64,000 nucleotides of DNA from a virus. The first letter of the stretch is position 1. Each line of letters opens with the position of its first letter. The position numbers and the translations under genes are program-made. Shown here in pieces: positions 11,219-49,123 of the stretch. The stretch is from IMG/VR virus record IMGVR_UViG_3300009128_000002, one strand, 5' to 3'. The notes beneath the pieces are model-generated. The model saw only the letters and a program-made list of their open reading frames with translations. It ran no database searches and was not told the origin of the DNA.

Positions 11219-11692
11219 ATGAAATCATTCAATACTTTAAGGGAAGAAACTACACAGGAAACATATTTTGCATTTTCTGAAGATGAATGGAATTCTCTTT
11301 CCGAAGAAGAAAAAGACGAATACCTTGATATTGAAGAAGATATTGAAGGTGAATTTGAAGCAGAAAATGGTGACGCCATTTGGGTTATAGGGGGTGAAGA
11401 ATACGTTTTAGTATCTGACGAAGATATTGAAGAAGCACGTGGTTTCAATGGACGCTCTAAAAGACAAGTACACAAAACACAGTTGAAAAAACGTCGTAAC
11501 AGAGGTCGTAACCGTAGAGAAAAAATGAAGATGAAGATTAAAAGAAGAAAATCTTCATTTAAAGTAAAACGCAAAAGACTTGAGAAAAAACGTCACAGAA
11601 AGTTTGGTGGTGGTGATATGTCAGGTAAAAGTGGAAAAATGGGTGCCGCCAGAAAACGTCGTGGTGGTCGATCTATTTCATATAAAGGATAA
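11219..11692 (+). CDS. Prohead core/internal protein (gp68-position); acidic N-half, very basic C-half
   Basis: Lies between gp20 and gp21; N-terminus MKSFNTLREE resembles a capsid-targeting leader. Confidence 0.6.
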   Translation: MKSFNTLREETTQETYFAFSEDEWNSLSEEEKDEYLDIEEDIEGEFEAENGDAIWVIGGEEYVLVSDEDIEEARGFNGRSKRQVHKTQLKKRRNRGRNRREKMKMKIKRRKSSFKVKRKRLEKKRHRKFGGGDMSGKSGKMGAARKRRGGRSISYKG

Positions 11693-11697
11693 CAATT

Positions 11698-12339
11698 ATG
11701 AGACTAATATCTGAAATTAATGAGCAAGTAAATTACCTAACAGAAGGTAAAGGAAAAGACTTATACATAGAAGGTGTGTTTTTACAAGCAGATTTGAAGA
11801 ATCGTAACGGACGTGTTTATCCTGGCTCTATTATGGAAAAGGAAGTTAAACGTTACACAGAAACATACATTGACAAGAAACGTGCTTTTGGTGAGTTAGG
11901 ACATCCTGATGGACCTACTATTAATCTTGACCGTGTATCACATATGATTACAGAACTAAAGAAAGATGGTTCAAATTATATTGGTAAGGCAAAGATTACA
12001 GATACACCACACGGAAATATTGTTAAGAATCTTATTAATGAAGGTGCCCAACTTGGTGTTTCGTCAAGAGGTATGGGAACACTGAAAGCAAATAAGAAAG
12101 GAATTCAGGAAGTACAAGGTGACTTTTATCTTGCTACTGCCGCTGACATTGTAGCAGATCCATCTGCACCAGATGCCTTTGTAAATGGTATTATGGAAGG
12201 TAAAGAATGGGTTTGGGATAATGGTATTATTAAAGAACAAGAAATTGCAGAGATGAAAAAAGAAGTTGAAAAAACTAGCAAAAACCGTTTAACGGCGTTA
12301 GAAGCACGTATTTTCAATGAATTTATCAATAAACTGTAA
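11698..12339 (+). CDS. gp21: Prohead protease gp21
   Basis: NRNGRVY, GELGHP, GVSSRGMG and DIVADPSAPDAFV motifs. Confidence 0.96.
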   Translation: MRLISEINEQVNYLTEGKGKDLYIEGVFLQADLKNRNGRVYPGSIMEKEVKRYTETYIDKKRAFGELGHPDGPTINLDRVSHMITELKKDGSNYIGKAKITDTPHGNIVKNLINEGAQLGVSSRGMGTLKANKKGIQEVQGDFYLATAADIVADPSAPDAFVNGIMEGKEWVWDNGIIKEQEIAEMKKEVEKTSKNRLTALEARIFNEFINKL

Positions 12340-38241: not shown

Positions 38242-38855
38242 AGTATGGTATAGTATGTGCAATGAAGGAGGAAGTTTGTAAAATAGTAACCTCGTTGCAC
38301 CTTAAAAAAGAAGTTGTTTATGGTGGACAACAAATATGGACAAATAAGAATAAGAACATTATTTTAATACATTCTGATATAGGTAAAGTGTTGTCTGCAC
38401 AGGCAACAACAACACTTATTTACTCATATAATGTAGATGCTGTTATTAATATTGGTATTGCAGGTGGAATAAAAGAGGTTGAACCTGGCTCTGCATTTGT
38501 AATCAATAAAGTAAGACAGTGGGATACTTTTGTACCATTTGAAGAATATCAAGATGTGTTGTATAATAAAGTAGAATGTTCTGTACCAACATACTTGGAT
38601 GTTGAAGTTAAGAGTTTAATAACTGGTGATACATTTGCAACAGAAACACCAAACACAACGTATGATCTTATTGATATGGAAGGTTTCGCAGTTGCGAAAG
38701 TATGTGAAAGTTTTAATATTAACACAATTATAATCAAAGGGGTTAGTGATAATGTTGATGGGGTCAGTGTCGATGTTATGTTTGATAACTTGAATATTGC
38801 AATGGATAACTCTATTGACATTTTGAAGGATATACTTAAACCGAATTTATTATAA
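38238..38855 (+). CDS. mtnN: MTA/SAH nucleosidase-like protein
   Basis: GIVCAMKEE, IGKV, INIGIAGG, TGDTF, DMEG and KGVSD motifs. Confidence 0.8.
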   Translation: MKYGIVCAMKEEVCKIVTSLHLKKEVVYGGQQIWTNKNKNIILIHSDIGKVLSAQATTTLIYSYNVDAVINIGIAGGIKEVEPGSAFVINKVRQWDTFVPFEEYQDVLYNKVECSVPTYLDVEVKSLITGDTFATETPNTTYDLIDMEGFAVAKVCESFNINTIIIKGVSDNVDGVSVDVMFDNLNIAMDNSIDILKDILKPNLL

Positions 38856-38858
38856 ATA
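38851..38858 (+). promoter_or_regulatory. Late promoter heading the internal-protein cluster
   Basis: Exact TATAAATA. Confidence 0.75.
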
Positions 38859-38890
38859 GTGTTATTAGATATTTTTTACGGTGTGTAAAA

Positions 38891-40114
38891 ATGAAAAGTT
38901 TCAAAACCTATTTACAAGAAAAGGCAGTCCCTCTAACACATTTAGAGCACGTAGAGGATGCTATCTTTGATTTTGGTAAATCAGGAGCAGAATCTGCCCT
39001 TAAAATTTTAGATGATGTTACACATTCTTTAGAAGGACACTCTAAACGTGCAGTAAATATTCAGGCAAAGGTTGATGGAGCACCAGCTGTGGTTGCTGGT
39101 ATTGACCCAGAAAACGGTAAGTTTTTTGTAGGTACTAAATCATTATTCAATAAAACACCAAAAATCAATTACACAGACGCAGATATTGATAAGAACCATT
39201 CAGGTGGTCTTGCCACCAAATTAAAAGACGCTTTAAAACATTTCCCTAAAATTATAAAAAAAGGTATATATCAAGGTGATTTTATGTTTTCACCAGAAGA
39301 CCTTAAAAAAGAAAAGATTGATGGTGAAACATACACTACATTTACCCCCAACACAATTACATATGCAGTACCTACAGGTGGTGATTTAGAAAGTAAAATA
39401 ACTTCATCTAAAGTTGGTGTTATTTGGCATACCACATACACTGGTGATGCAATCAGTAATTTAAAGGCACAGTTTAAAATTAATCTAAAAGCATTTACAC
39501 AACATAAAGATGTTTGGTTTACTGACACAAACTTTAGGGATGTTTCTGGTTCTGCTACATTAACCACTACTGAATATAAGACAATTCAGACAAAACTAAA
39601 ACACGCACATAAAGAGTTGAAATTATTAAATGATAAAGATATGAGTATATTATTTGGTAAGACTGAAGTGTCAAAGATGGTTAAGATTTATATAAATGCA
39701 CAAGTTAGACGTGGTGAAAGGTTTACTAATAAACAGAAATCTGTTGGTACATTCATTGACTTTATCCGTGCAGATTATGAAAAGAAAATTGCTAAATTAA
39801 AGAGCGAAAAGGGTAAAGAGAAGAAGAAAAAACAATTAGAAGATGTTATTAAAGATTTCCGTAAATCTGCTGGTACATTCTCACATACATTACAATGGCA
39901 CGATGATGTTATTGATATTAAAATGTTAATTGTTAAGAAATTAGAAACAGTCAATCAAATACCTGCATTTATTAAGACTGATACTGGTTATAAGACTACA
40001 GGACCAGAGGGTTTTGTTGCTATTGATACATTATCAAACAGTGCAGTTAAATTAGTTAATAGATTGGAGTTTAGTAAAAATAACTTCAATGCAGTAAAAC
40101 AATGGGTGAAATAA
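38891..40114 (+). CDS. Conserved T4-like protein (DUF6267-like) with ligase-type nucleotidyltransferase motifs and a capsid-targeting-like leader
   Basis: MKSFKTYLQE; HLEHVED, KVDGAPA, YQGDFMF, PNTITY, GPEGFV and KLVNRLEFS motifs. Confidence 0.7.
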   Translation: MKSFKTYLQEKAVPLTHLEHVEDAIFDFGKSGAESALKILDDVTHSLEGHSKRAVNIQAKVDGAPAVVAGIDPENGKFFVGTKSLFNKTPKINYTDADIDKNHSGGLATKLKDALKHFPKIIKKGIYQGDFMFSPEDLKKEKIDGETYTTFTPNTITYAVPTGGDLESKITSSKVGVIWHTTYTGDAISNLKAQFKINLKAFTQHKDVWFTDTNFRDVSGSATLTTTEYKTIQTKLKHAHKELKLLNDKDMSILFGKTEVSKMVKIYINAQVRRGERFTNKQKSVGTFIDFIRADYEKKIAKLKSEKGKEKKKKQLEDVIKDFRKSAGTFSHTLQWHDDVIDIKMLIVKKLETVNQIPAFIKTDTGYKTTGPEGFVAIDTLSNSAVKLVNRLEFSKNNFNAVKQWVK

Positions 40115-40116
40115 AT

Positions 40117-41001
40117 ATGAAAAAATTTAATGAGTTTATTACTGAAAAGGCACGTACAAAATCATCAAGTGATGTTTTGACATTAGCCGCTGATAAAAGT
40201 AAAACCGAAGAATTAAGAGAGTTAATTAACGCAAAACATAAAATAACTAAAGACGTTGGTAAAATTTCAGCAACTACACCTGAAAAGTTTGTTACTGAAT
40301 TTAATAAGGCACTTACTAAAAATAAAGCTATTTTTACAAAGATATTTAATGATGTGCCTAAAGGGGTTGGTCCTGGCGAAGTTTTACTTGCTTACTTATC
40401 TGATAACGTAACTATTGGTGGTGGACGTTCAAACTTTGATGTTGAATTAGGTACACATAAAATTGAAGTTAAGGCAACAAAAGTAGATAAGAATTTGTTT
40501 GCATATAATTTTAGATTAGGTGTTGACAGTCGTGGTGCATTAATTAATACATTAAAAGAAATTAAGGCTTTATATAAGGTTGCAAAATTCTATATAGATG
40601 AAATTAACAATGATGAAATGTTATCAAAAATCGACCGTGGTGAAATGACATCACTTAAAAAGCATTTAAAAGGGTTCGATCCTTCAGTTGCTGCTGGTTA
40701 TGAAAAACTAGATATTAATGTTTTTAAAAACCAAAAAGTTATTTTCCAAGGTAAAACTATTGGTAAACTAACTGATAAGGATATACTTAGTAAATTAAAG
40801 ACGTTAGCGACTACAGAATACACAAAGATAAAAGGATATGATGAAATAGAAACTGGTTTAGAAGCAAAACTATCTGCACATAAAATGAAATATTTCTTTT
40901 TCAACATAGACACATTAGAATTATACTATAAACCAAAACTATCTGGATCAGTTATTGATACTATTACTGGTGGTTCAATTAAGGTAAGGGTGCCATTATG
41001 A
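40117..41001 (+). CDS. Putative PD-(D/E)xK nuclease-like internal protein
   Basis: MKKFNEFITE leader; GPGEVLL...FDVELGTHKIEVKA. Confidence 0.55.
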   Translation: MKKFNEFITEKARTKSSSDVLTLAADKSKTEELRELINAKHKITKDVGKISATTPEKFVTEFNKALTKNKAIFTKIFNDVPKGVGPGEVLLAYLSDNVTIGGGRSNFDVELGTHKIEVKATKVDKNLFAYNFRLGVDSRGALINTLKEIKALYKVAKFYIDEINNDEMLSKIDRGEMTSLKKHLKGFDPSVAAGYEKLDINVFKNQKVIFQGKTIGKLTDKDILSKLKTLATTEYTKIKGYDEIETGLEAKLSAHKMKYFFFNIDTLELYYKPKLSGSVIDTITGGSIKVRVPL

Positions 41002-41597
41002 AAACATTCAAACAACATATAAAAGAAGAATCGCTATCTTCATTAGAAAAAAAGAAAGTTCAACTATTTTTGAAAGCGATGAAAATGGTTTCAAATTCAC
41101 CTAATCAAATGGAAGTTCGTAAGGAACTTGACGATGTGTGGAAGAAAATCAAAGCAATGAAAGAAGGGGTTGAACTTAATGAAATGGAATTTACTTCTAA
41201 ACAACTTGCACAACTAAAGAAAGATTATGCAGGAATTAAGAAAATCGACCCATCAAGTGATACATATAAAAAGATGAGAGCAATGATTGATTCTTTACCT
41301 AAAGAAGCATTACAATCATTAGTTAATGCTAAAATCAACTTCATTTCAATATTAGCAAATAACTCATTAAGGAAACTTAAAGAAGAATATGTTACCGAAG
41401 GACTATCTCCACAAAAGGATATGGAAAATAAGTTGGACAGACTTATTGACGCAGACAACGTAAAGGCTGCTATTGAGTGGAGTAAGTATGTTGATAAATT
41501 AGGTCCAAAGTTCGTAAACCCAAGTAATGCTAGATGGACTGCAGAACACGTTAAAGTGATGGATAAACTTATTAAGAAGTATAGAATTAAACAATAA
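40998..41597 (+). CDS. Modular basic internal (head) protein
   Basis: MKTFKQHIKEE leader; EGVELNE and EEYVTE linkers. Confidence 0.6.
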   Translation: MKTFKQHIKEESLSSLEKKKVQLFLKAMKMVSNSPNQMEVRKELDDVWKKIKAMKEGVELNEMEFTSKQLAQLKKDYAGIKKIDPSSDTYKKMRAMIDSLPKEALQSLVNAKINFISILANNSLRKLKEEYVTEGLSPQKDMENKLDRLIDADNVKAAIEWSKYVDKLGPKFVNPSNARWTAEHVKVMDKLIKKYRIKQ

Positions 41598-41598
41598 T

Positions 41599-42603
41599 AT
41601 GAAATCATTTGCACAATTTGATAAGGATTATGAATACAATTTATTTGTAGAAGCCCTTACACATTATGAAAATGGTACTAACCTTAATGAACTTGCTATG
41701 CCTAGTTTTATTAAGAAAAAGGTAGAGTTTGTTAAAAACGTTGCCGTTATTCTTAAAAAGAACTTTAATGATATGGTTAATTTCTTTAAGGAAAAGGTTG
41801 TATTTCAATTCTTCAAGGCAATAAAATGGTCTTTTGATAGAATCTTTAAGATCATGAAAGCTGGTTGGAAAGCATTTAAAACGGTTCAAAAAGTTATATT
41901 TGATTATATGTCAAATACAGTTGTTGGTAAATGGACTACTAAAGAATTAGCAAAGTTGGATGAGTATCTAAAGACACACAAAAAAACCAAACGTATGGGT
42001 GGTGTGGTTGTATCGGGTATGTTAATATATATTTGGTTCAATATGACATTCACTGGTGATGTTGGTTATGACTTTGATATGGGTGATATTCTTTCTGCAC
42101 TTGCTGGTAAGTTCTCGTTGGCAACTATCTTCGGTGGTCCTGAAGGTGCTAAGTTATTGACGTTATTCATCACTGGTGTTATTGGATTATCGTTCCCATG
42201 GCCTGGACCATCATCTGTTCAGTTTATTGGTGCAATTGTATTGGGTATTGGTAATAAAGTAAAAGCAAAATTTAATCCATTAAAAGAAGCAATAAAACGT
42301 GACGATAGTCAATCTGGTATAAAAGGTTTTAAAAATCAAGGTACTGCATCTAAAGCGGGTAAAGTTGCTGGTAAGAATAAGAGTGATGATGCAATGCGTA
42401 AGCATAATGATGCTATGATTGATGCCGCTTTAAAACAAGATAAGAAAGCATTTGATAAATCAGCAAAAACAGTGGCAAAATTATTTCATAAAATGTACGG
42501 ACAAACTATGAAAATCCAAACAATGTGGAGTGTTAAGAAGGCAAAGGCAATGAAGGACGGTTCGTTCTGGAAGATGCCGATATCACAAAGGAGTAAGTTA
42601 TAA
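41599..42603 (+). CDS. Putative internal protein with a hydrophobic central region
   Basis: MKSFAQF leader; Gly-rich hydrophobic helices; basic C-terminal module after LKEA. Confidence 0.6.
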   Translation: MKSFAQFDKDYEYNLFVEALTHYENGTNLNELAMPSFIKKKVEFVKNVAVILKKNFNDMVNFFKEKVVFQFFKAIKWSFDRIFKIMKAGWKAFKTVQKVIFDYMSNTVVGKWTTKELAKLDEYLKTHKKTKRMGGVVVSGMLIYIWFNMTFTGDVGYDFDMGDILSALAGKFSLATIFGGPEGAKLLTLFITGVIGLSFPWPGPSSVQFIGAIVLGIGNKVKAKFNPLKEAIKRDDSQSGIKGFKNQGTASKAGKVAGKNKSDDAMRKHNDAMIDAALKQDKKAFDKSAKTVAKLFHKMYGQTMKIQTMWSVKKAKAMKDGSFWKMPISQRSKL

Positions 42604-43901
42604 TGTTAACATTTAAACAACATTTAGAAGAAGCAAAGAATAAACCAGTCGTGTTTACGTTTGGTAGATTTAATCCTATAACTAAAGGACACGGTGAGTT
42701 GATTGACTTCGTTGTTAAGAAATCAAAAGGTGGTATTGGAATGGTGTTTACCTCACAATCCAATGAGCCTAAAAAGAACCCATTAGATTATAATACAAAA
42801 ACTAAGTGGTTAAAGAAGTTTTTCCCTAAAGCAACTATCGTTAAGAATACTACATTAAAAACACCATTTCAAATATTAAAATGGTTATCTGACCAAGGTT
42901 ATAAAGACGTAACTATGGTTGTAGGTAGTGATAGGGCAGATGAATTTGAAAAGAGTATGCGACCTTATATAAACCACGAAGATCCAAAGAAATCATATAA
43001 CTTTGATAAATTTGAAGTGATTAGTTCTGGTAATCGTAAAGCTGGCGTATCTGGTACTGATATGCGAAACCACGTTAAGAATGGTGATATGAAATCATTT
43101 ATGAAAGGACTTCCTAAATCTGCTTCTAAACAAGATGGTGAGAAATTCTTCAATGATGTTAAGTCTGGTATGGGTATCAATGAATATCTTGAAATGGGTA
43201 CTGACGAAACTACTAAAGAATACAAGAAAAACACTCCAGGCGAATTAGACGAAGGAACATTGAAAGATATGTTCAAAGCAATCATTGGTAAGAAAACGAT
43301 GCATACCTTCAACCGTGCTGTACACGAAAAGAAGTATAAACAGGCATTGAAGATTTACCATAAAATGGTTAAGAACTACAACAAAAATCCTCAAGCACAA
43401 CAATCATCAGGTGTTATTATCGCCAATCCTAAAGGACTTGCTTTATCAAAAGCGGCACAAATGGTTGGTATTAGTGTTAAAGAATTAAAGAAAGTTCTTG
43501 ATAGAAAAACACGTTATGAAAGTTTCGAACAATTTGACGAGCAAATCACTAAAGCAAACTTAAACGATGTTGAACGTTTTGCTGACAAAATCTTTGCTAA
43601 AGTTGGTATTGATATTGAATTTACTCGTCATTTCCTTGATAGGGTGAACGATAAACGTAACGGTAAAGAAATTAGTGTTGCTGAATTGACACGTCTATTC
43701 AAACAAACATATAAGAAACATGGTAAGAAAATTGCTAAGATGGGTGACGATGCTCAAGCAGTATTGAATGATTTACAAACAGATATAAATATGCCATTTG
43801 TATTAAAATACGATCCAGATATGGATGAGTTTGATTTGGTTGCTAAAACTGTGATGAGGAAGAAAGACTTCAAAACAAGCAATCAAAAATTGAAAGTATA
43901 A
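42603..43901 (+). CDS. HIGH-superfamily (cytidylyltransferase-like) nucleotidyltransferase with appended modules
   Basis: MLTFKQHLEE leader; FTFGRFNPITKGH, KNPL, VVGSDR and SGTxMR motifs; C-terminal FTRHFLDRV module. Confidence 0.8.
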   Translation: MLTFKQHLEEAKNKPVVFTFGRFNPITKGHGELIDFVVKKSKGGIGMVFTSQSNEPKKNPLDYNTKTKWLKKFFPKATIVKNTTLKTPFQILKWLSDQGYKDVTMVVGSDRADEFEKSMRPYINHEDPKKSYNFDKFEVISSGNRKAGVSGTDMRNHVKNGDMKSFMKGLPKSASKQDGEKFFNDVKSGMGINEYLEMGTDETTKEYKKNTPGELDEGTLKDMFKAIIGKKTMHTFNRAVHEKKYKQALKIYHKMVKNYNKNPQAQQSSGVIIANPKGLALSKAAQMVGISVKELKKVLDRKTRYESFEQFDEQITKANLNDVERFADKIFAKVGIDIEFTRHFLDRVNDKRNGKEISVAELTRLFKQTYKKHGKKIAKMGDDAQAVLNDLQTDINMPFVLKYDPDMDEFDLVAKTVMRKKDFKTSNQKLKV

Positions 43902-43905
43902 TTAT

Positions 43906-43913
43906 TATAAATA
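43906..43913 (+). promoter_or_regulatory. Late promoter TATAAATA
   Basis: Exact consensus inside the cluster. Confidence 0.7.
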
Positions 43914-43935
43914 TTGGTATATTTGGAGAAAAGAA

Positions 43936-44184
43936 ATGAATTTAGAAGAAGCTTATAAAGAAATGCAAACAGTCCAATTGTATGAGAGGAAATTCGATGC
44001 TAAGAAGGCAGAGCAAACATTGAGAGATATACTAAAAGTGTATGCTCAAGTTAAGTCTGTTGGACTGGATAAAAACATATATAAACGTTGGGATGGTATG
44101 TGGTATACAACATATACTACTTGGTTTTCATCTAGCGATATGGAAAAGATGGGTTTACCAACAATGTTGAGGATTGGAAAATAA
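43936..44184 (+). CDS. Small putative internal protein
   Basis: MNLEEAYKEM...LYE leader; GGAG RBS. Confidence 0.55.
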   Translation: MNLEEAYKEMQTVQLYERKFDAKKAEQTLRDILKVYAQVKSVGLDKNIYKRWDGMWYTTYTTWFSSSDMEKMGLPTMLRIGK

Positions 44185-44185
44185 T

Positions 44186-45148
44186 ATGAAATCATTTAAA
44201 CAACATTTACAAGAAGAGAAACTATTCGAGGAATACCTTGAAGAAAAACTAATTATGCTTTCTCAAGGTAAGAAGTATGGACAAATTGTATTTCTTGCAG
44301 GTGGTGCTGGTTCTGGTAAAGGATTCGCTTCAACTAATTTTATGCAGAAAGAGTTATTCAAAGTGCGTGATGTTGATGAATGGAAGAAAACGTTTATGGA
44401 TATTGCTGATATTATAGACAACCCAGCAAGATATGCTAAAATGAAAAAGGCAGGTACTGAAATTCCAAAAGGCGAATATGAAGAAATTAAAGGTTTGGAT
44501 TTAAAAAATCCTAAACACGTTGAAAAGTTACATTTCTTTATTAAGAAATTAGGTCTTAAAAACAAGACACTTGATTTGATGCTTAGTCAAATGAAAAACA
44601 AAGAAACGTTACCAAATATTATGTTTGATATTACTGCTAAAGATTCAAAGGATATTGGACAATTTTTACCACGTTTATTACAGGCGGGATATAACCCTGC
44701 AAATATTCATTTAGTATGGGTATTAACTGATTATAAAATTGCTATTAAACAAAATGCTGGTAGAGAACGTGTTGTGCCTGATGATATTATGTTAGCAACA
44801 CATAAAGGTGCTTCTGAAACAGTTTACAAATATGTTACTGGACAAGGTAAGAAGATGCAGATTAATGGCGAAATTCACGTTATTTTAAATAATCAACAAA
44901 ATACAATATTTTTCGAACCATCTGGTGCTGATAGAACTTCTAATATGAAGAAGTATGATAATAAAACCAATAAGTTTAAAAAGAAAACTAATGGTTTAGT
45001 TGTTAAAGATTTTAAATATTTGACATTGAAAAAACGTGGTAAACCAATTTCAAAAGAAGCAGAAGTACAAAAACAATTATATAGTTGGGTTGTTGATAAT
45101 ATACCAAAGAGTGATTTCCAAAAGGCATTAAAGGATATTAATAAATAA
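44186..45148 (+). CDS. P-loop kinase (zeta-toxin/AAA_33-like) with capsid-targeting-like leader
   Basis: MKSFKQHLQEE; FLAGGAGSGKG, DVDE, FDIT and NxxRxRxVP motifs. Confidence 0.75.
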   Translation: MKSFKQHLQEEKLFEEYLEEKLIMLSQGKKYGQIVFLAGGAGSGKGFASTNFMQKELFKVRDVDEWKKTFMDIADIIDNPARYAKMKKAGTEIPKGEYEEIKGLDLKNPKHVEKLHFFIKKLGLKNKTLDLMLSQMKNKETLPNIMFDITAKDSKDIGQFLPRLLQAGYNPANIHLVWVLTDYKIAIKQNAGRERVVPDDIMLATHKGASETVYKYVTGQGKKMQINGEIHVILNNQQNTIFFEPSGADRTSNMKKYDNKTNKFKKKTNGLVVKDFKYLTLKKRGKPISKEAEVQKQLYSWVVDNIPKSDFQKALKDINK

Positions 45149-45149
45149 A

Positions 45150-45359
45150 ATGTGTCCGATTTGTTGGACATTAGCGGTATTAACCTTTTTAGGTTTTGGT
45201 AGTGCTTCGATAACATTGTTTGTTCAATCAAACGGTTGGTTGTCGTTTGGTTTAATGGTGTTTACGTCAATAACGTTTTGGGTTTTGACGTATAAATTAG
45301 TAATGAGTAAATGCGAAAAGGGTGGTAAAAAATGCGAGTGTGGGAAACCGAAGAAGTAA
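45150..45359 (+). CDS. Small 2-TM protein with N-terminal CPxC
   Basis: MCPICW followed by two hydrophobic helices. Confidence 0.5.
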   Translation: MCPICWTLAVLTFLGFGSASITLFVQSNGWLSFGLMVFTSITFWVLTYKLVMSKCEKGGKKCECGKPKK

Positions 45360-45667
45360 TAGAAATATTAGAGCAGGGTCCAGTAAGATTAAAGTTAAAA
45401 TTTACTAATGGTGAATTAAGACAGTTTACTCGTGATATGGGTACTGCAGACACTTGCCATTGTGATGAAGGACATAAGTCTTGTGGTTTTATATCAGAAT
45501 TAGAGTGGACTGATAGGTTACTCTGGTGGGATAAAGATGGACGAATTGCTGTATGGGATATTGGTACACACGAATTTACCAACATTCTGGCAGAAGATAT
45601 AGATGTAATTATTGGACATGGTGAAGATGAAGGTAAACCCTCATGTTGCTGTAGTAAGGAGAACTAA
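45332..45667 (+). CDS. WYL-like/SH3 beta-barrel protein (paralogue A)
   Basis: LEQGPVRL...NGELRQFTR...IAVWDI pattern shared with the 45670 and 54959 ORFs. Confidence 0.5.
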   Translation: MRVWETEEVIEILEQGPVRLKLKFTNGELRQFTRDMGTADTCHCDEGHKSCGFISELEWTDRLLWWDKDGRIAVWDIGTHEFTNILAEDIDVIIGHGEDEGKPSCCCSKEN

Positions 45668-45669
45668 GA

Positions 45670-45936
45670 ATGACAAAGACTGAATTATTAAAACATTTGA
45701 AAGAAGGTGTTGTTAGAGCAAGAATTGATGGTGAAGTGCGCCAATTTACACGTAATGCCAGTAAGACTGGACTTATGGAAGATGGTGACCTTAATGTACT
45801 AACTGATGCTAAAATTAAAGAAGCAGATTCTGGTGCTACTATTGGTGTTTATGAATTAGGTATTGGTAAATTAACTACAATTACTAATAAGGAAATGAAT
45901 GATATTATTGGTACAATTAATTTAGAATGTCTGTAA
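45670..45936 (+). CDS. WYL-like/SH3 beta-barrel protein (paralogue B)
   Basis: LKEGVVR...DGEVRQFTR...IGVYEL pattern. Confidence 0.5.
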   Translation: MTKTELLKHLKEGVVRARIDGEVRQFTRNASKTGLMEDGDLNVLTDAKIKEADSGATIGVYELGIGKLTTITNKEMNDIIGTINLECL

Positions 45937-46088
45937 CACCGACAAAGGAAGAAAAGAAAAGAATTATGGACAAAGTTCCTACTAGAACGATGTCTTATAA
46001 ACAATGGGGTGAAGTTCTAGGTTGGACTCACTCAGAAGCAAAACAAGGAATTAAAGATGAAGACATTCAATCAACTAAGAGAAGCTAA
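45927..46088 (+). CDS. Small hypothetical protein (53 aa; not in the ORF track)
   Basis: Own translation MSVTPTKEEKKRIMDKVP...; fills the gap between neighbours. Confidence 0.35.
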   Translation: MSVTPTKEEKKRIMDKVPTRTMSYKQWGEVLGWTHSEAKQGIKDEDIQSTKRS

Positions 46089-47571
46089 AAACTACGATAA
46101 AATAGCAAAGGATATAAACAAAACTTATGCTTCATCTAGAGGTAAAGTAGGTAAGGATAAAGATGGTGTTGATACTGCTGGAAACCGTGTAGTTTATGAA
46201 AAGGATGGTTATAGAGTACAGCAACTGACTGACGATGGTTTGGGTGATACGTTTGTTGTTATTAAAAACTATAAGCAACTTCTTTTAGGTTGGTCTGCTA
46301 AAGTTGGTGGAAATAAAAAGACTGCTCTAAAACTTAAAAAGACTGATAAGTTCAAATGGACTTGGGCAAAGTATGCCAAAAATTATGGTGGACAAGCAGG
46401 TGGTATGTTACAAGCACCTGGCTCAGAAACACTATCTGGTAATACGTGGGAAGTATCTCCTGTAGAATTAATTGCTTGGTTAAAGAAAGAAGGTATTAAA
46501 GAATCAGTTGAACTTGAAGAAGGTTACTTTAACGTCCAATACTACGATAAAAAAGGTAAAGCAGTTAAAGGTGGTAAAACATTCAAAACTAAATCTGAAG
46601 CAGATAAGTATGCTAAACGTGGTAACGCAGTAGATAAAGTTGGTGGTACATATAAAGTTCTTGCTGTTAAAGGACGTATGGAATCAGTTGAACTAGACGA
46701 AGTTGAACTTGATGAAGCAAAACAAGTATCTCTTTCAAAGAAAGGTGAATATAATTTAACTGCTGATGGCAAATCCTCTGTTGGTGTTCGTTTATCACTA
46801 AGATATAATGGTAAACAAGTTCTTACTGGTGTTAAACAAGATGGTATGTTTGTAATGGCGTTTGATGCTAAGTTCGTTAAAGATAATAAATTAGATCACG
46901 GTGCTAAGATTGTTAAGAAAGGTAAGTGGACTCACGTAGGATTCAAGAAAGCAGACGATGTAATTGCTTATGCCGTTCTTGGTGGATTGAGTGAAGAAGT
47001 TATTAATGAAGTTAATAATGGATTAGGTTCATTTGTTTCGCAAATGAAGAAGTTACTTAAAGACCCTAAAGCAAAAAAGGCACACAGAGCCGCCTCATCA
47101 TTGATTATGCGTGCCCAAGAGAAAGGACCTCTTGCTAAAACTGCTGTTAAAGCAATCAAAAAAGCATTGCCTGGACTTGCTAAGAAGGCAGGTGGTAAAT
47201 GGGAAAAGAAAATTCTTGGTATGAGAACAATGTTAATTGAGGAAAAAGAAATGAAAACATTTGAAAGTCTAAGAGGTGAATTAACTGAAGCGAAAGCAAA
47301 AGGATTTATTGGAACTAAAGGTAATAACAACTACGCAGTATCATTAGATGGTGCTGACAGTTCACGTCCTGATTCAATGGATGTAGAACGTGCCGCTCAT
47401 AAATTTAAGAAAGTTGCTAAAAAGGGTTATGCTGGTTCTAAAGGTAAAGCAACTATACCTGCAGTTAAAAAAGAAATTAAAATGTTAGGTGCAACACAGT
47501 ATTATGCAAAATGGCAGAAAGATTCTTCTTCATACAAAGATGATACTGTTACAATCTATTACACTAAATAG
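46057..47571 (+). CDS. Lys-rich multi-module internal head protein (putative polyprotein)
   Basis: MKTFNQLRE leader; ESVELEE, ESVELDEVELDE and LSEEVINE linkers; internal MKTFESLRGELTE. Confidence 0.7.
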   Translation: MKTFNQLREAKNYDKIAKDINKTYASSRGKVGKDKDGVDTAGNRVVYEKDGYRVQQLTDDGLGDTFVVIKNYKQLLLGWSAKVGGNKKTALKLKKTDKFKWTWAKYAKNYGGQAGGMLQAPGSETLSGNTWEVSPVELIAWLKKEGIKESVELEEGYFNVQYYDKKGKAVKGGKTFKTKSEADKYAKRGNAVDKVGGTYKVLAVKGRMESVELDEVELDEAKQVSLSKKGEYNLTADGKSSVGVRLSLRYNGKQVLTGVKQDGMFVMAFDAKFVKDNKLDHGAKIVKKGKWTHVGFKKADDVIAYAVLGGLSEEVINEVNNGLGSFVSQMKKLLKDPKAKKAHRAASSLIMRAQEKGPLAKTAVKAIKKALPGLAKKAGGKWEKKILGMRTMLIEEKEMKTFESLRGELTEAKAKGFIGTKGNNNYAVSLDGADSSRPDSMDVERAAHKFKKVAKKGYAGSKGKATIPAVKKEIKMLGATQYYAKWQKDSSSYKDDTVTIYYTK

Positions 47572-49094: not shown

Positions 49095-49123
49095 TTGACA
49101 TTTGGTTGACCGTCGTGTATAAT
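49095..49123 (+). promoter_or_regulatory. Consensus sigma70 promoter for the primase gene
   Basis: TTGACA-N17-TATAAT; +1 falls at about the ATG, so probably a leaderless transcript. Confidence 0.85.

Follow-up and report, generated by a model that had tools for sequence, protein, structure and literature searches.

What does a phage make from a single open reading frame (ORF) that reads like several small basic proteins joined end to end? The question is raised by IMG/VR virus record IMGVR_UViG_3300009128_000002, a 64,000-nucleotide stretch of DNA (hereafter, the window) from an uncultured marine T4-like myophage. The ORF occupies positions 46057-47571 on the plus strand, between gp41 and gp61. 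The original prediction, made from the letters of the window, proposed that this 504-amino-acid (aa), Lys-rich product is a polyprotein in which about five modules are divided by short acidic linkers resembling prohead-protease sites. The frame is open as described, and its product contains 17% Lys. Gene calls on nine contigs, which come from independent samples, give an identical 504-aa protein, and the ORF is therefore a real gene. We consider it probable, at roughly two chances in three, that it encodes a capsid-targeted precursor that is cut by a gp21-type protease into several internal head proteins.

The ORF consists of an N-terminal leader similar to the T4 capsid-targeting sequence (CTS), five basic modules (M1 to M5) and four acidic junctions, and all four junctions quoted in the original prediction are present. 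The parts are listed here with their net charges; module families (F numbers) and related proteins (P numbers) are those described below.

46057..46083, plus strand: leader MKTFNQLRE, aa 1-9; predicted cut after E9 (L-R-E/A); resembles the T4 CTS, MKTYQEFIAE
46084..46500, plus strand: M1, aa 10-148, net charge +11; also present as one unit in P0002-P0004 and P0070
46501..46521, plus strand: junction 1, ESVELEE, aa 149-155, net charge -4; sites IKE/S and LEE/G; first copy of a 14-mer
46522..46680, plus strand: M2 (family F1), aa 156-208, net charge +10; found as a full-length unit in >25 relatives
46681..46716, plus strand: junction 2, ESVELDEVELDE, aa 209-220, net charge -7; two LDE sites; second copy of the 14-mer
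46717..46974, plus strand: M3 (family F10), aa 221-306, net charge about +9
46975..47010, plus strand: junction 3, VLGGLSEEVINE, aa 307-318, net charge -3; sites LSE/E and INE/V
47011..47229, plus strand: M4 (family F19), aa 319-391, helical, net charge +16
47230..47289, plus strand: junction 4, MLIEEKEMKTFESLRGELTE, aa 392-411 (MLIEEKE-MKTFESLRGELTE), net charge -3; apparent fossil leader; predicted cut LTE/A
47290..47568, plus strand: M5 (family F6), aa 412-504, net charge +10; a widespread domain of ~90 aa, mostly C-terminal

The modules are small, basic and Lys-rich, with lengths of 53-139 aa and net charges of +9 to +16. The 14-mer, GAATCAGTTGAACT, was said to recur exactly at 46501 and 46681; these are its only two copies in the 64 kb, and both are in frame for ESVEL. 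Shuffled sequences predict 0.03 matches, and none of 100 shuffles reaches two. Also present is the proposed second leader within the last linker, with an internal ATG at 47251 and the sequence GAGG 8 nt upstream (47239-47242). The ORF has ten [LI]-x-E sites. All are confined to the leader and junctions, leaving the 444 residues of the modules without any. By itself, the emptiness of the modules is not significant, because shuffling leads to an expectation of only 1.0 site there.

A search of 5.8 billion proteins yielded 79 relatives, which are 59-874 aa long and cover 10-100% of the query. These proteins were cut at the junction motif, the pieces were clustered, and hidden Markov models were built from the clusters and mapped back onto the proteins. 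This gave ~30 families of modules (median length, 72 aa), with 1 to 11 modules in each of the 79 proteins. The 79 proteins exhibit 67 distinct architectures with 99 ordered neighbour pairs, and 33 pairs of modules occur in both orders. When searched separately, the five modules are matched as complete units in other combinations and orders. For example, M4 precedes M3 in P0024 and P0028, M5 precedes M3 in P0042, and M2 is present twice in P0020. M3 (F10) has 20 different left neighbours and M2 (F1) has 8. Immediately behind the leader, M2 is found in P0030, P0034 and P0109, and M4 is the first module in P0024. Such reordering of whole units was anticipated by the original prediction, and the relatives are not collinear homologues with a single fold. 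Assembly chimeras were considered as a source of this shuffling and rejected: the DNA shared is at most ~20 nt, and the same proteins occur on many independent contigs.

In an exhaustive, profile-free search of 1.84 billion representatives (163 hits), M5 (F6) is the most widespread module and is often a free-standing protein of 90-125 aa. Single-module genes exist, and M5 is found in the same genomic slot as a free-standing protein with its own leader (P0072 and locus L003).

Modules are joined by a common peptide. Across 143 unique junctions, representing the 99 ordered module pairs, the consensus reads K-ESV[ED]L[ED]E with G or A as the next residue, and short variants (ESVEE/G, ESVDE/A) and doubled ones (ESVEINEAVLDE/G) also occur. 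T4 gp21 cuts after L/I-X-E (PMC9026906). The motif [LI]xE is present in 117 of the 143 junctions and the broader [LIVM]xE in 137. The density of [LI]xE in junctions across the family is 5.25 per 100 aa, as compared with 2.3 expected from junction composition, and most junctions of the ORF discussed here offer two candidate sites. The major capsid protein of this phage provides a point of reference. Its residues LDE45/A46 align column for column with LTE65/A66 of T4 gp23, in agreement with the original prediction that ALDE/A stands at the expected maturation position of this phage's gp23. T4 gp23 loses residues 1-65 on maturation. LDE/A is thus both a junction-type site and the gp23 maturation site of this phage.

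The leaders follow a related pattern. In the T4 CTS, MKTYQEFIAE, positions 4 and 7 serve targeting, and positions 8 and 10 serve processing. MKTFNQLRE/A conforms to this pattern, with ~10 residues, an aromatic residue at position 4, one hydrophobic residue at positions 7-8 and a final Glu. Leaders of complete relatives include MK[TSN]F..[LI][RK]E, MKTFKELKAQINE, MITLQQIRE, MNL.NTIKNL..INE and similar sequences, all of which end in [LI]xE. At least nine families have modules that start at the same residue whether the xE of a leader or that of a linker precedes them. F6 begins after a leader in P0072 (MKTFKEIRNINE/AKG) and after a linker in P0021 (ESVELDE/AKG). F1 begins with MKNFKQLKEDLLE/DYF behind a leader and ESVELEE/GYF behind a linker. 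F19 is preceded by INE, LDE or a leader, e.g., MKTFKQIKFELDE/VNSGLGSF (leader) and EEVINE/VNNGLGSF (linker). The same interchange is seen for F0, F5, F9, F12 and F20. This interchangeability of leader and linker, as read from the aligned sequences, is the strongest argument that the junctions may be cleaved.

Where leader-bearing genes have been fused, the leader is kept in frame as a junction, with or without its Met. The element in junction 4 recurs in relatives with Met (P0031, P0041) and without Met (P0005, ERKSFKELRGLIE/AKAKG; P0030, DSFMEFRSSLDE/AKG), and the leader of M1 is internal in P0003 and P0004, where GSKFNQLRE/A serves as a junction. These cases bear out the suggestion that a free-standing gene was fused on. 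Because leaders survive fusion in this way, the "second leader" at 47251 is best viewed as a fossil that serves as a junction. Independent initiation at 47251 is unlikely to be essential, since the Met is not conserved in relatives.

Some polyproteins (L009 5971-7047, P0068, P0036) end in truncated, leader-like C-terminal tails such as …ANKTFTEFRNLT and …TKTKSFKEFTK. It looks as if a downstream, leader-bearing module was lost after fusion.

Exchange at this locus can also be followed at the DNA level. Leu codons in the linkers are CTN in 10 of 10 cases, as compared with 62 of 159 in other parts of those genes (Fisher P = 1.3e-4), and Val codons are GTT in 11 of 11 cases, versus 103 of 179 elsewhere (P = 0.0035). 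Linker codons are therefore more uniform than the peptide demands, which fits shared descent or homogenization of linker DNA. Locus L015, which encodes P0002, is 100% identical to the window over 7.5 kb except for a patch of ~670 bp at 46177-46845. This patch holds 167 of the 171 differences, and the other four cluster at 44165-44171. Within the patch, L015 carries an unrelated module in the slot of M2, flanked by stretches of M1 and M3 that are 72-97% identical. On this comparison the patch is a recent recombination tract inside the gene, with end points in M1 and M3 and not in linkers. The sequences clearly mark the polyprotein locus as an exchange hot spot, and the linkers themselves are possible crossover points. 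The original prediction suggested that microhomology between linkers could allow modules to be shuffled; linker codons are indeed conserved beyond the peptide, whereas the one recent exchange that could be traced ends inside modules.

The surroundings of the gene are those of a T4-like phage. PHROG profiles identify terminase, sheath, tube, portal, a gp67-like ORF, gp21 protease, gp22 scaffold and gp23 capsid genes in T4 order, and the head genes are arranged as gp20-67-68-21-22-23, as in T4. Downstream of the head module are gp43, UvsX, gp41 and gp61. The gp23-type capsid protein shares only ~50% identity with its counterparts in Pelagibacter phage HTVC008M and the Methylophilales Melnitz phages, and the ESVELEE grammar was not found in HTVC008M. 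A megablast search of cultured phages with 12 kb around the gene gave no DNA match. Three other features of the window bear on how the polyprotein might be made and processed.

11219..11692, plus strand: prohead core protein in the gp68 position, leader MKSFNTLREE, between the gp67-like ORF and gp21, like T4 gene 68
11698..12339, plus strand: gp21-type prohead protease, the proposed processing enzyme (phrog_207)
43906..43913, plus strand: putative T4-type late promoter box, TATAAATA, the nearest upstream of the polyprotein gene; another is at 38851-38858

The gp21-type ORF matches the head maturation protease profile with E = 9e-79. The total number of TATAAATA boxes in the window equals the chance expectation, but all 12 are on the plus (coding) strand, mostly in short gaps before structural genes (e.g., 7133, 9348, 12370 and 14840). 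This strand bias and placement indicate that they are probably T4-type late promoters. No terminator-like site was found on the plus strand between 43906 and the polyprotein gene. A perfect sigma-70-type promoter (TTGACA, 17-nt spacer, TATAAT) is found only at 49095-49123, directly before the primase gene, where early or middle genes presumably resume behind the late cluster.

The gp68-position protein has an MKSF leader, an acidic N-terminal half and a C-terminal half that is extremely rich in Arg and Lys. T4 gp68 exhibits the same layout of charges with a different N-terminus.

The polyprotein gene is the last in a run of seven leader-bearing ORFs downstream of putative late promoter boxes, which start at 38891, 40117, 40998, 41599, 42603, 44186 and 46057. 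In five of its neighbours the leader ends exactly at E10 (MKSFKTYLQE, MKKFNEFITE, MKTFKQHIKE, MLTFKQHLEE and MKSFKQHLQE). All ORFs of this run (38851-47571) are basic, with net charges of +13 to +28. The ORF at 38891 encodes a KxDG ligase-like DUF6267 protein, that at 42603 a cytidylyltransferase and that at 44186 a P-loop, zeta-toxin-like protein. ORF 42603-43901 (432 aa) is itself a fusion of two leader-bearing genes that are separate in relatives, namely a cytidylyltransferase of ~193 aa and a protein of 217-233 aa (L002 7546-8127 and 12683-13336; L009 2773-3351 and 3626-4327). Its junction, GELDE/GTLKD, corresponds to the end of a leader, EHLNE/GAIKD, in a relative. In hundreds of T4-like cyanophages, ORF 42603 has matches annotated as "cytidyltransferase". 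The orthologue in S-SM2, which is labelled T4-GC190, starts with MKSFFQFLSE/A, and T4-GC190 is among the proteins that mass spectrometry detected in purified S-SM1 virions (PMC3037559). A leader-bearing family is therefore physically present in virions, and by analogy this may bear, indirectly, on the polyprotein.

The slot of the polyprotein gene is syntenic in relatives, lying behind a conserved pair of small ORFs and ahead of DUF7207 and primase. It holds a 10-module gene of 779 aa in L001, and genes of 692 aa in L002 and 358 aa in L009. In L003 it holds a single leader+F6 gene of 106 aa, and a separate leader+F16 gene is found two genes downstream.

The two small ORFs, at 45332-45667 (Cys-rich) and 45670-45936, are adjacent and have a common motif, G.VR..L....GE.RQFTR. 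Both are conserved directly upstream of the polyprotein slot in L001, L003, L009 and L010.

Another recurrent module has the motif DKDIDNDGD.DDSD.(F/Y)LH.(K/R)RK and is present in P0066, P0060, P0094, P0117 and L002 13345-13902. It matches phrog_22379, phrog_4359 and the N-terminal part of phrog_764 ("cytidyltransferase"), all from cultured phages.

Structure prediction agrees with a chain of separate domains. An AlphaFold2 model of the whole ORF, based on an alignment of 46 rows, gives a predicted local distance difference test score (pLDDT) of ~85 for M2, >90 for M3 and ~97 for M5. M4 is helical (~63) and M1 is poorly predicted. The pLDDT falls below 50 at aa 208-222, 311-313 and 398-412, and the predicted template modelling score (pTM) of the whole model is 0.32. 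The original prediction expected independent domains, and confident domains separated by disordered linkers are what the model exhibits. Folded alone, M5 has a pLDDT of 92 and a pTM of 0.83.

Searches with the modules uncovered no relative of known function, either by sequence or by fold. Pfam and PHROGs searches of the ORF and ten multi-module relatives returned nothing above noise, and these eleven proteins contain no match to peptidase families (Pfam, E <= 0.05-0.1). No protease domain was found in or beside polyprotein genes. Foldseek searches of the whole model against the PDB and BFVD gave no significant match. A PDB sequence-profile search of M5 had no match, and structural searches with M5 alone uncovered no PDB relative (best Foldseek E = 0.33; best VIA Z = 3.9). 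With the whole model, VIA gave only generic helical matches to M4 (Z <= 7.1). A phage ejectosome chain among these tied with unrelated proteins and was given no weight. In the ESM Atlas, M3 is near TfoX_N/YjbR-like models (template modelling score ~0.55), a likeness between models that we regard as a lead only, and the search with M5 gave nothing usable. Homology to T4 internal proteins IPI-III was not detected, as the ORF has no Pfam or PHROG match and no significant Foldseek or VIA match.

A few F6 modules occur in a different setting. In P0090, P0095, P0097, P0103, P0117, P0145 and P0157, F6 is fused through LDE/AKG behind a gp67-like helical N-domain and a poly-acidic tract. The corresponding genes (loci L005-L007, from other T4-like phages) adjoin amidase and holin-like genes near DUF7207, and are not located in the gp67 slot. 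P0145 matches phrog_1064 ("prohead") with E = 1.7e-4. Comparison with the gp67-like ORF of the window by hhalign gives weak scores (E = 0.004 and 0.11), and pairwise BLAST for the link to gp67 is not significant. The sequences thus provide a weak lead that some F6 proteins may be related to gp67.

We propose that the polyprotein would be expressed late, and that its leader of ~9 residues, a local form of the T4 CTS, would take the whole chain into the prohead core. There, the gp21-type protease, which cuts after [L/I]-x-Glu, would remove the leader and cut every acidic junction. Five separate basic proteins of 6-16 kDa would be released, along with short acidic peptides that leave the head. 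Like T4 IPI-III, the basic modules would remain associated with the DNA in the head and probably be delivered into the host together with it, and they might act as DNA counter-ions and/or anti-defence proteins. Since a single leader would serve the whole chain, many cargo units could be loaded in a fixed ratio, and because each junction carries its own cut site, modules could be gained, lost or swapped. With ~30 modules reshuffled and with junctions that fit the rule of the head protease, these genes probably specify a changeable set of small proteins that is loaded into the capsid.

Several observations weigh against this proposal. [LI]xE is a short motif, and its frequency in module cores shows no depletion family-wide (0.85 per 100 aa, with 0.63 expected). 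Mature parts of the leader-bearing proteins contain 12 such sites where shuffles predict 16.1 (observed/expected 0.75, P = 0.16), and the ratio for 56 control ORFs is 1.29; this depletion is weak, and we do not use it as evidence. Some junctions lack [LI]xE, and six of the 143 lack any [LIVM]xE; EGVEQNSDLD and GYEFKE/A (P0002) are examples. Some free-standing F6 proteins have no leader, and the leader is also found on enzymes (ligase-like, P-loop), of which packaging would be a prediction. Precursors in T4, phiKZ and SPN3US are reported to lose propeptides and not to release several mature proteins. Finally, tblastn with the whole ORF and with M5 against 50,697 cultured-phage records gave no match.

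The absence of depletion in module cores would also suit a chain that is never cut, in which the ORF encodes one multi-domain basic protein that works with or without its leader, for example as a DNA or RNA binder or a head-internal protein. Its junctions would be flexible, charge-balancing spacers in a beads-on-a-string arrangement, and disordered linkers between folded domains are ordinary. However, plain spacers are unlikely to keep one sequence of 7-8 residues across 99 module pairs, and are not expected to hold L or I at P3, E at P1 and a small residue at P1'. An uncut chain also leaves unexplained why in-frame leaders act as junctions and why the register of module starts is the same behind leaders as behind linkers. 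In addition, modules are found as single-module genes. We therefore regard an uncut chain as unlikely. Alternatively, the chain might enter the prohead and be cut there as a disposable part of the core or scaffold, like T4 gp22, gp67 and gp68, with its pieces expelled or acting only in assembly or charge balance. T4 core proteins are indeed cut at many sites, the gp68-position protein has the same type of leader, and the F6 proteins with a gp67-like N-domain and acidic tract (including the phrog_1064 match of P0145 and the better of the hhalign scores) point the same way. Yet the modules of this ORF are compact, confidently folded, strongly basic and without internal sites, whereas T4 gp22 and gp67 are acidic and site-rich, and gp22 of this phage has 15 [LI]xE sites. 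The polyprotein gene also resides outside the head module, in a hypervariable slot, and its content differs between otherwise identical genomes, which fits accessory cargo better than an assembly part. A disposable core component is for these reasons improbable.

We give least credence to the view that the product is not capsid cargo at all, i.e., that its N-terminus is a translation-start or other signal and that it acts in the cytoplasm, with processing, if any, by another protease and with M5 perhaps made from the ATG at 47251. The well-placed GAGG ahead of that ATG would allow this, as would the presence of leaders on enzymes with plausible cytoplasmic roles. Orthologues in HTVC008M mostly lack a clean leader, which also accords with a role outside the capsid. 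Against this, the leader matches the T4 CTS in length and at key positions, and it is present both on the gp68-like protein of the head module and on the T4-GC190 family found in purified virions. The internal Met is not conserved, and polyprotein genes have no protease domain in or beside them. Processing of capsid cargo by the gp21-type protease remains our preferred account.

A more extensive proposal is possible, at odds that we put a little short of even. The polyproteins may constitute a cassette system for capsid cargo in a clade of marine T4-like phages, with at least ~30 small, basic, interchangeable units that each end in ESVELEE. The peptide would be the cut site of the prohead protease and, at the DNA level, a shared recombination junction (GAA TCW GTT GAA CTW GAN GAA), and one leader could load an arbitrary and rapidly changing set of injected proteins at a fixed ratio.

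The closest known counterparts are the CTS-led internal proteins of T4. The T4 CTS and internal proteins are the textbook case of protein delivery with phage DNA, with one product per gene. IPI, IPII and IPIII, as well as Alt, share with the polyproteins a leader of ~10 residues, MKT[Y/F]..[F/L][I/L].E, that is followed by a small residue, and the L/I-x-E cut rule. T4 internal proteins also resemble the modules in being small, basic and Lys-rich, and in the hypervariable gene content between relatives; their lysines contact DNA. However, each T4 gene yields one product and is cut once, whereas here a single leader is followed by up to 11 unrelated modules, each with a junction site. The polyprotein locus, between gp41 and gp61, is not at the T4 internal protein loci, and similarity of its product to IPI-III in sequence or fold was not detected. 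T4's own internal proteins are not homologous to each other, and such homology is therefore not strictly defining.

Other systems share some of these features. Precursors of phiKZ inner-body proteins and SPN3US ejection proteins are, like those proposed here, internal or ejected head proteins that are cut at x-x-Glu by a relative of gp21 and have redundant propeptide sites. In SPN3US, however, cleavage at 13 of 14 sites trims N-terminal propeptides off one mature protein, and no linker shared between modules is described for either phage. T4 gp22, gp67 and gp68 also become part of the core and are cleaved at numerous L/I-x-E sites. However, the genes for these acidic or mixed proteins belong to the head module and their products are largely expelled, in contrast to the basic, folded modules of this accessory slot. 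In eukaryotes, multi-copy precursors of cationic peptides alternate basic units with acidic spacers that carry processing sites, and give several products. This parallel is functional only, as the proteins, proteases and biology are unrelated.

Polyvalent proteins of phages and conjugative elements (Iyer et al. 2017, PMC5512222) likewise combine many unrelated domains (2-15) in combinatorial architectures, with predicted packaging in capsids and liberation of the units by proteolysis. They contain an embedded zincin-like MPTase peptidase, which was not found in the ORF or its ten relatives, and recognizable enzymatic or anti-defence domains (ART, ParB-like, ArdA and MuF, among others), which were not found in this gene family. 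Unlike such self-processing proteins, the polyproteins described here would be cut by a separate prohead protease at one conserved junction site. We found no paper that describes this arrangement, and many products per leader with a universal junction appear to be new.

If the proposal is correct, annotation, in which the modules are all "hypothetical" at present, may greatly underestimate the size and changeability of capsid cargo in abundant ocean phages. Cargo proteins in metagenomes, and the mature ends of these proteins, could be recognized by the junction motif as a simple sequence rule, and dozens of small folded domains would become candidates for roles in DNA packing or anti-defence. 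The arrangement would also represent a natural design for loading multiple proteins into T4-type capsids. If the cassette system is real as well, it would amount to a polyprotein strategy in tailed phages, driven by the arms race with host defences.

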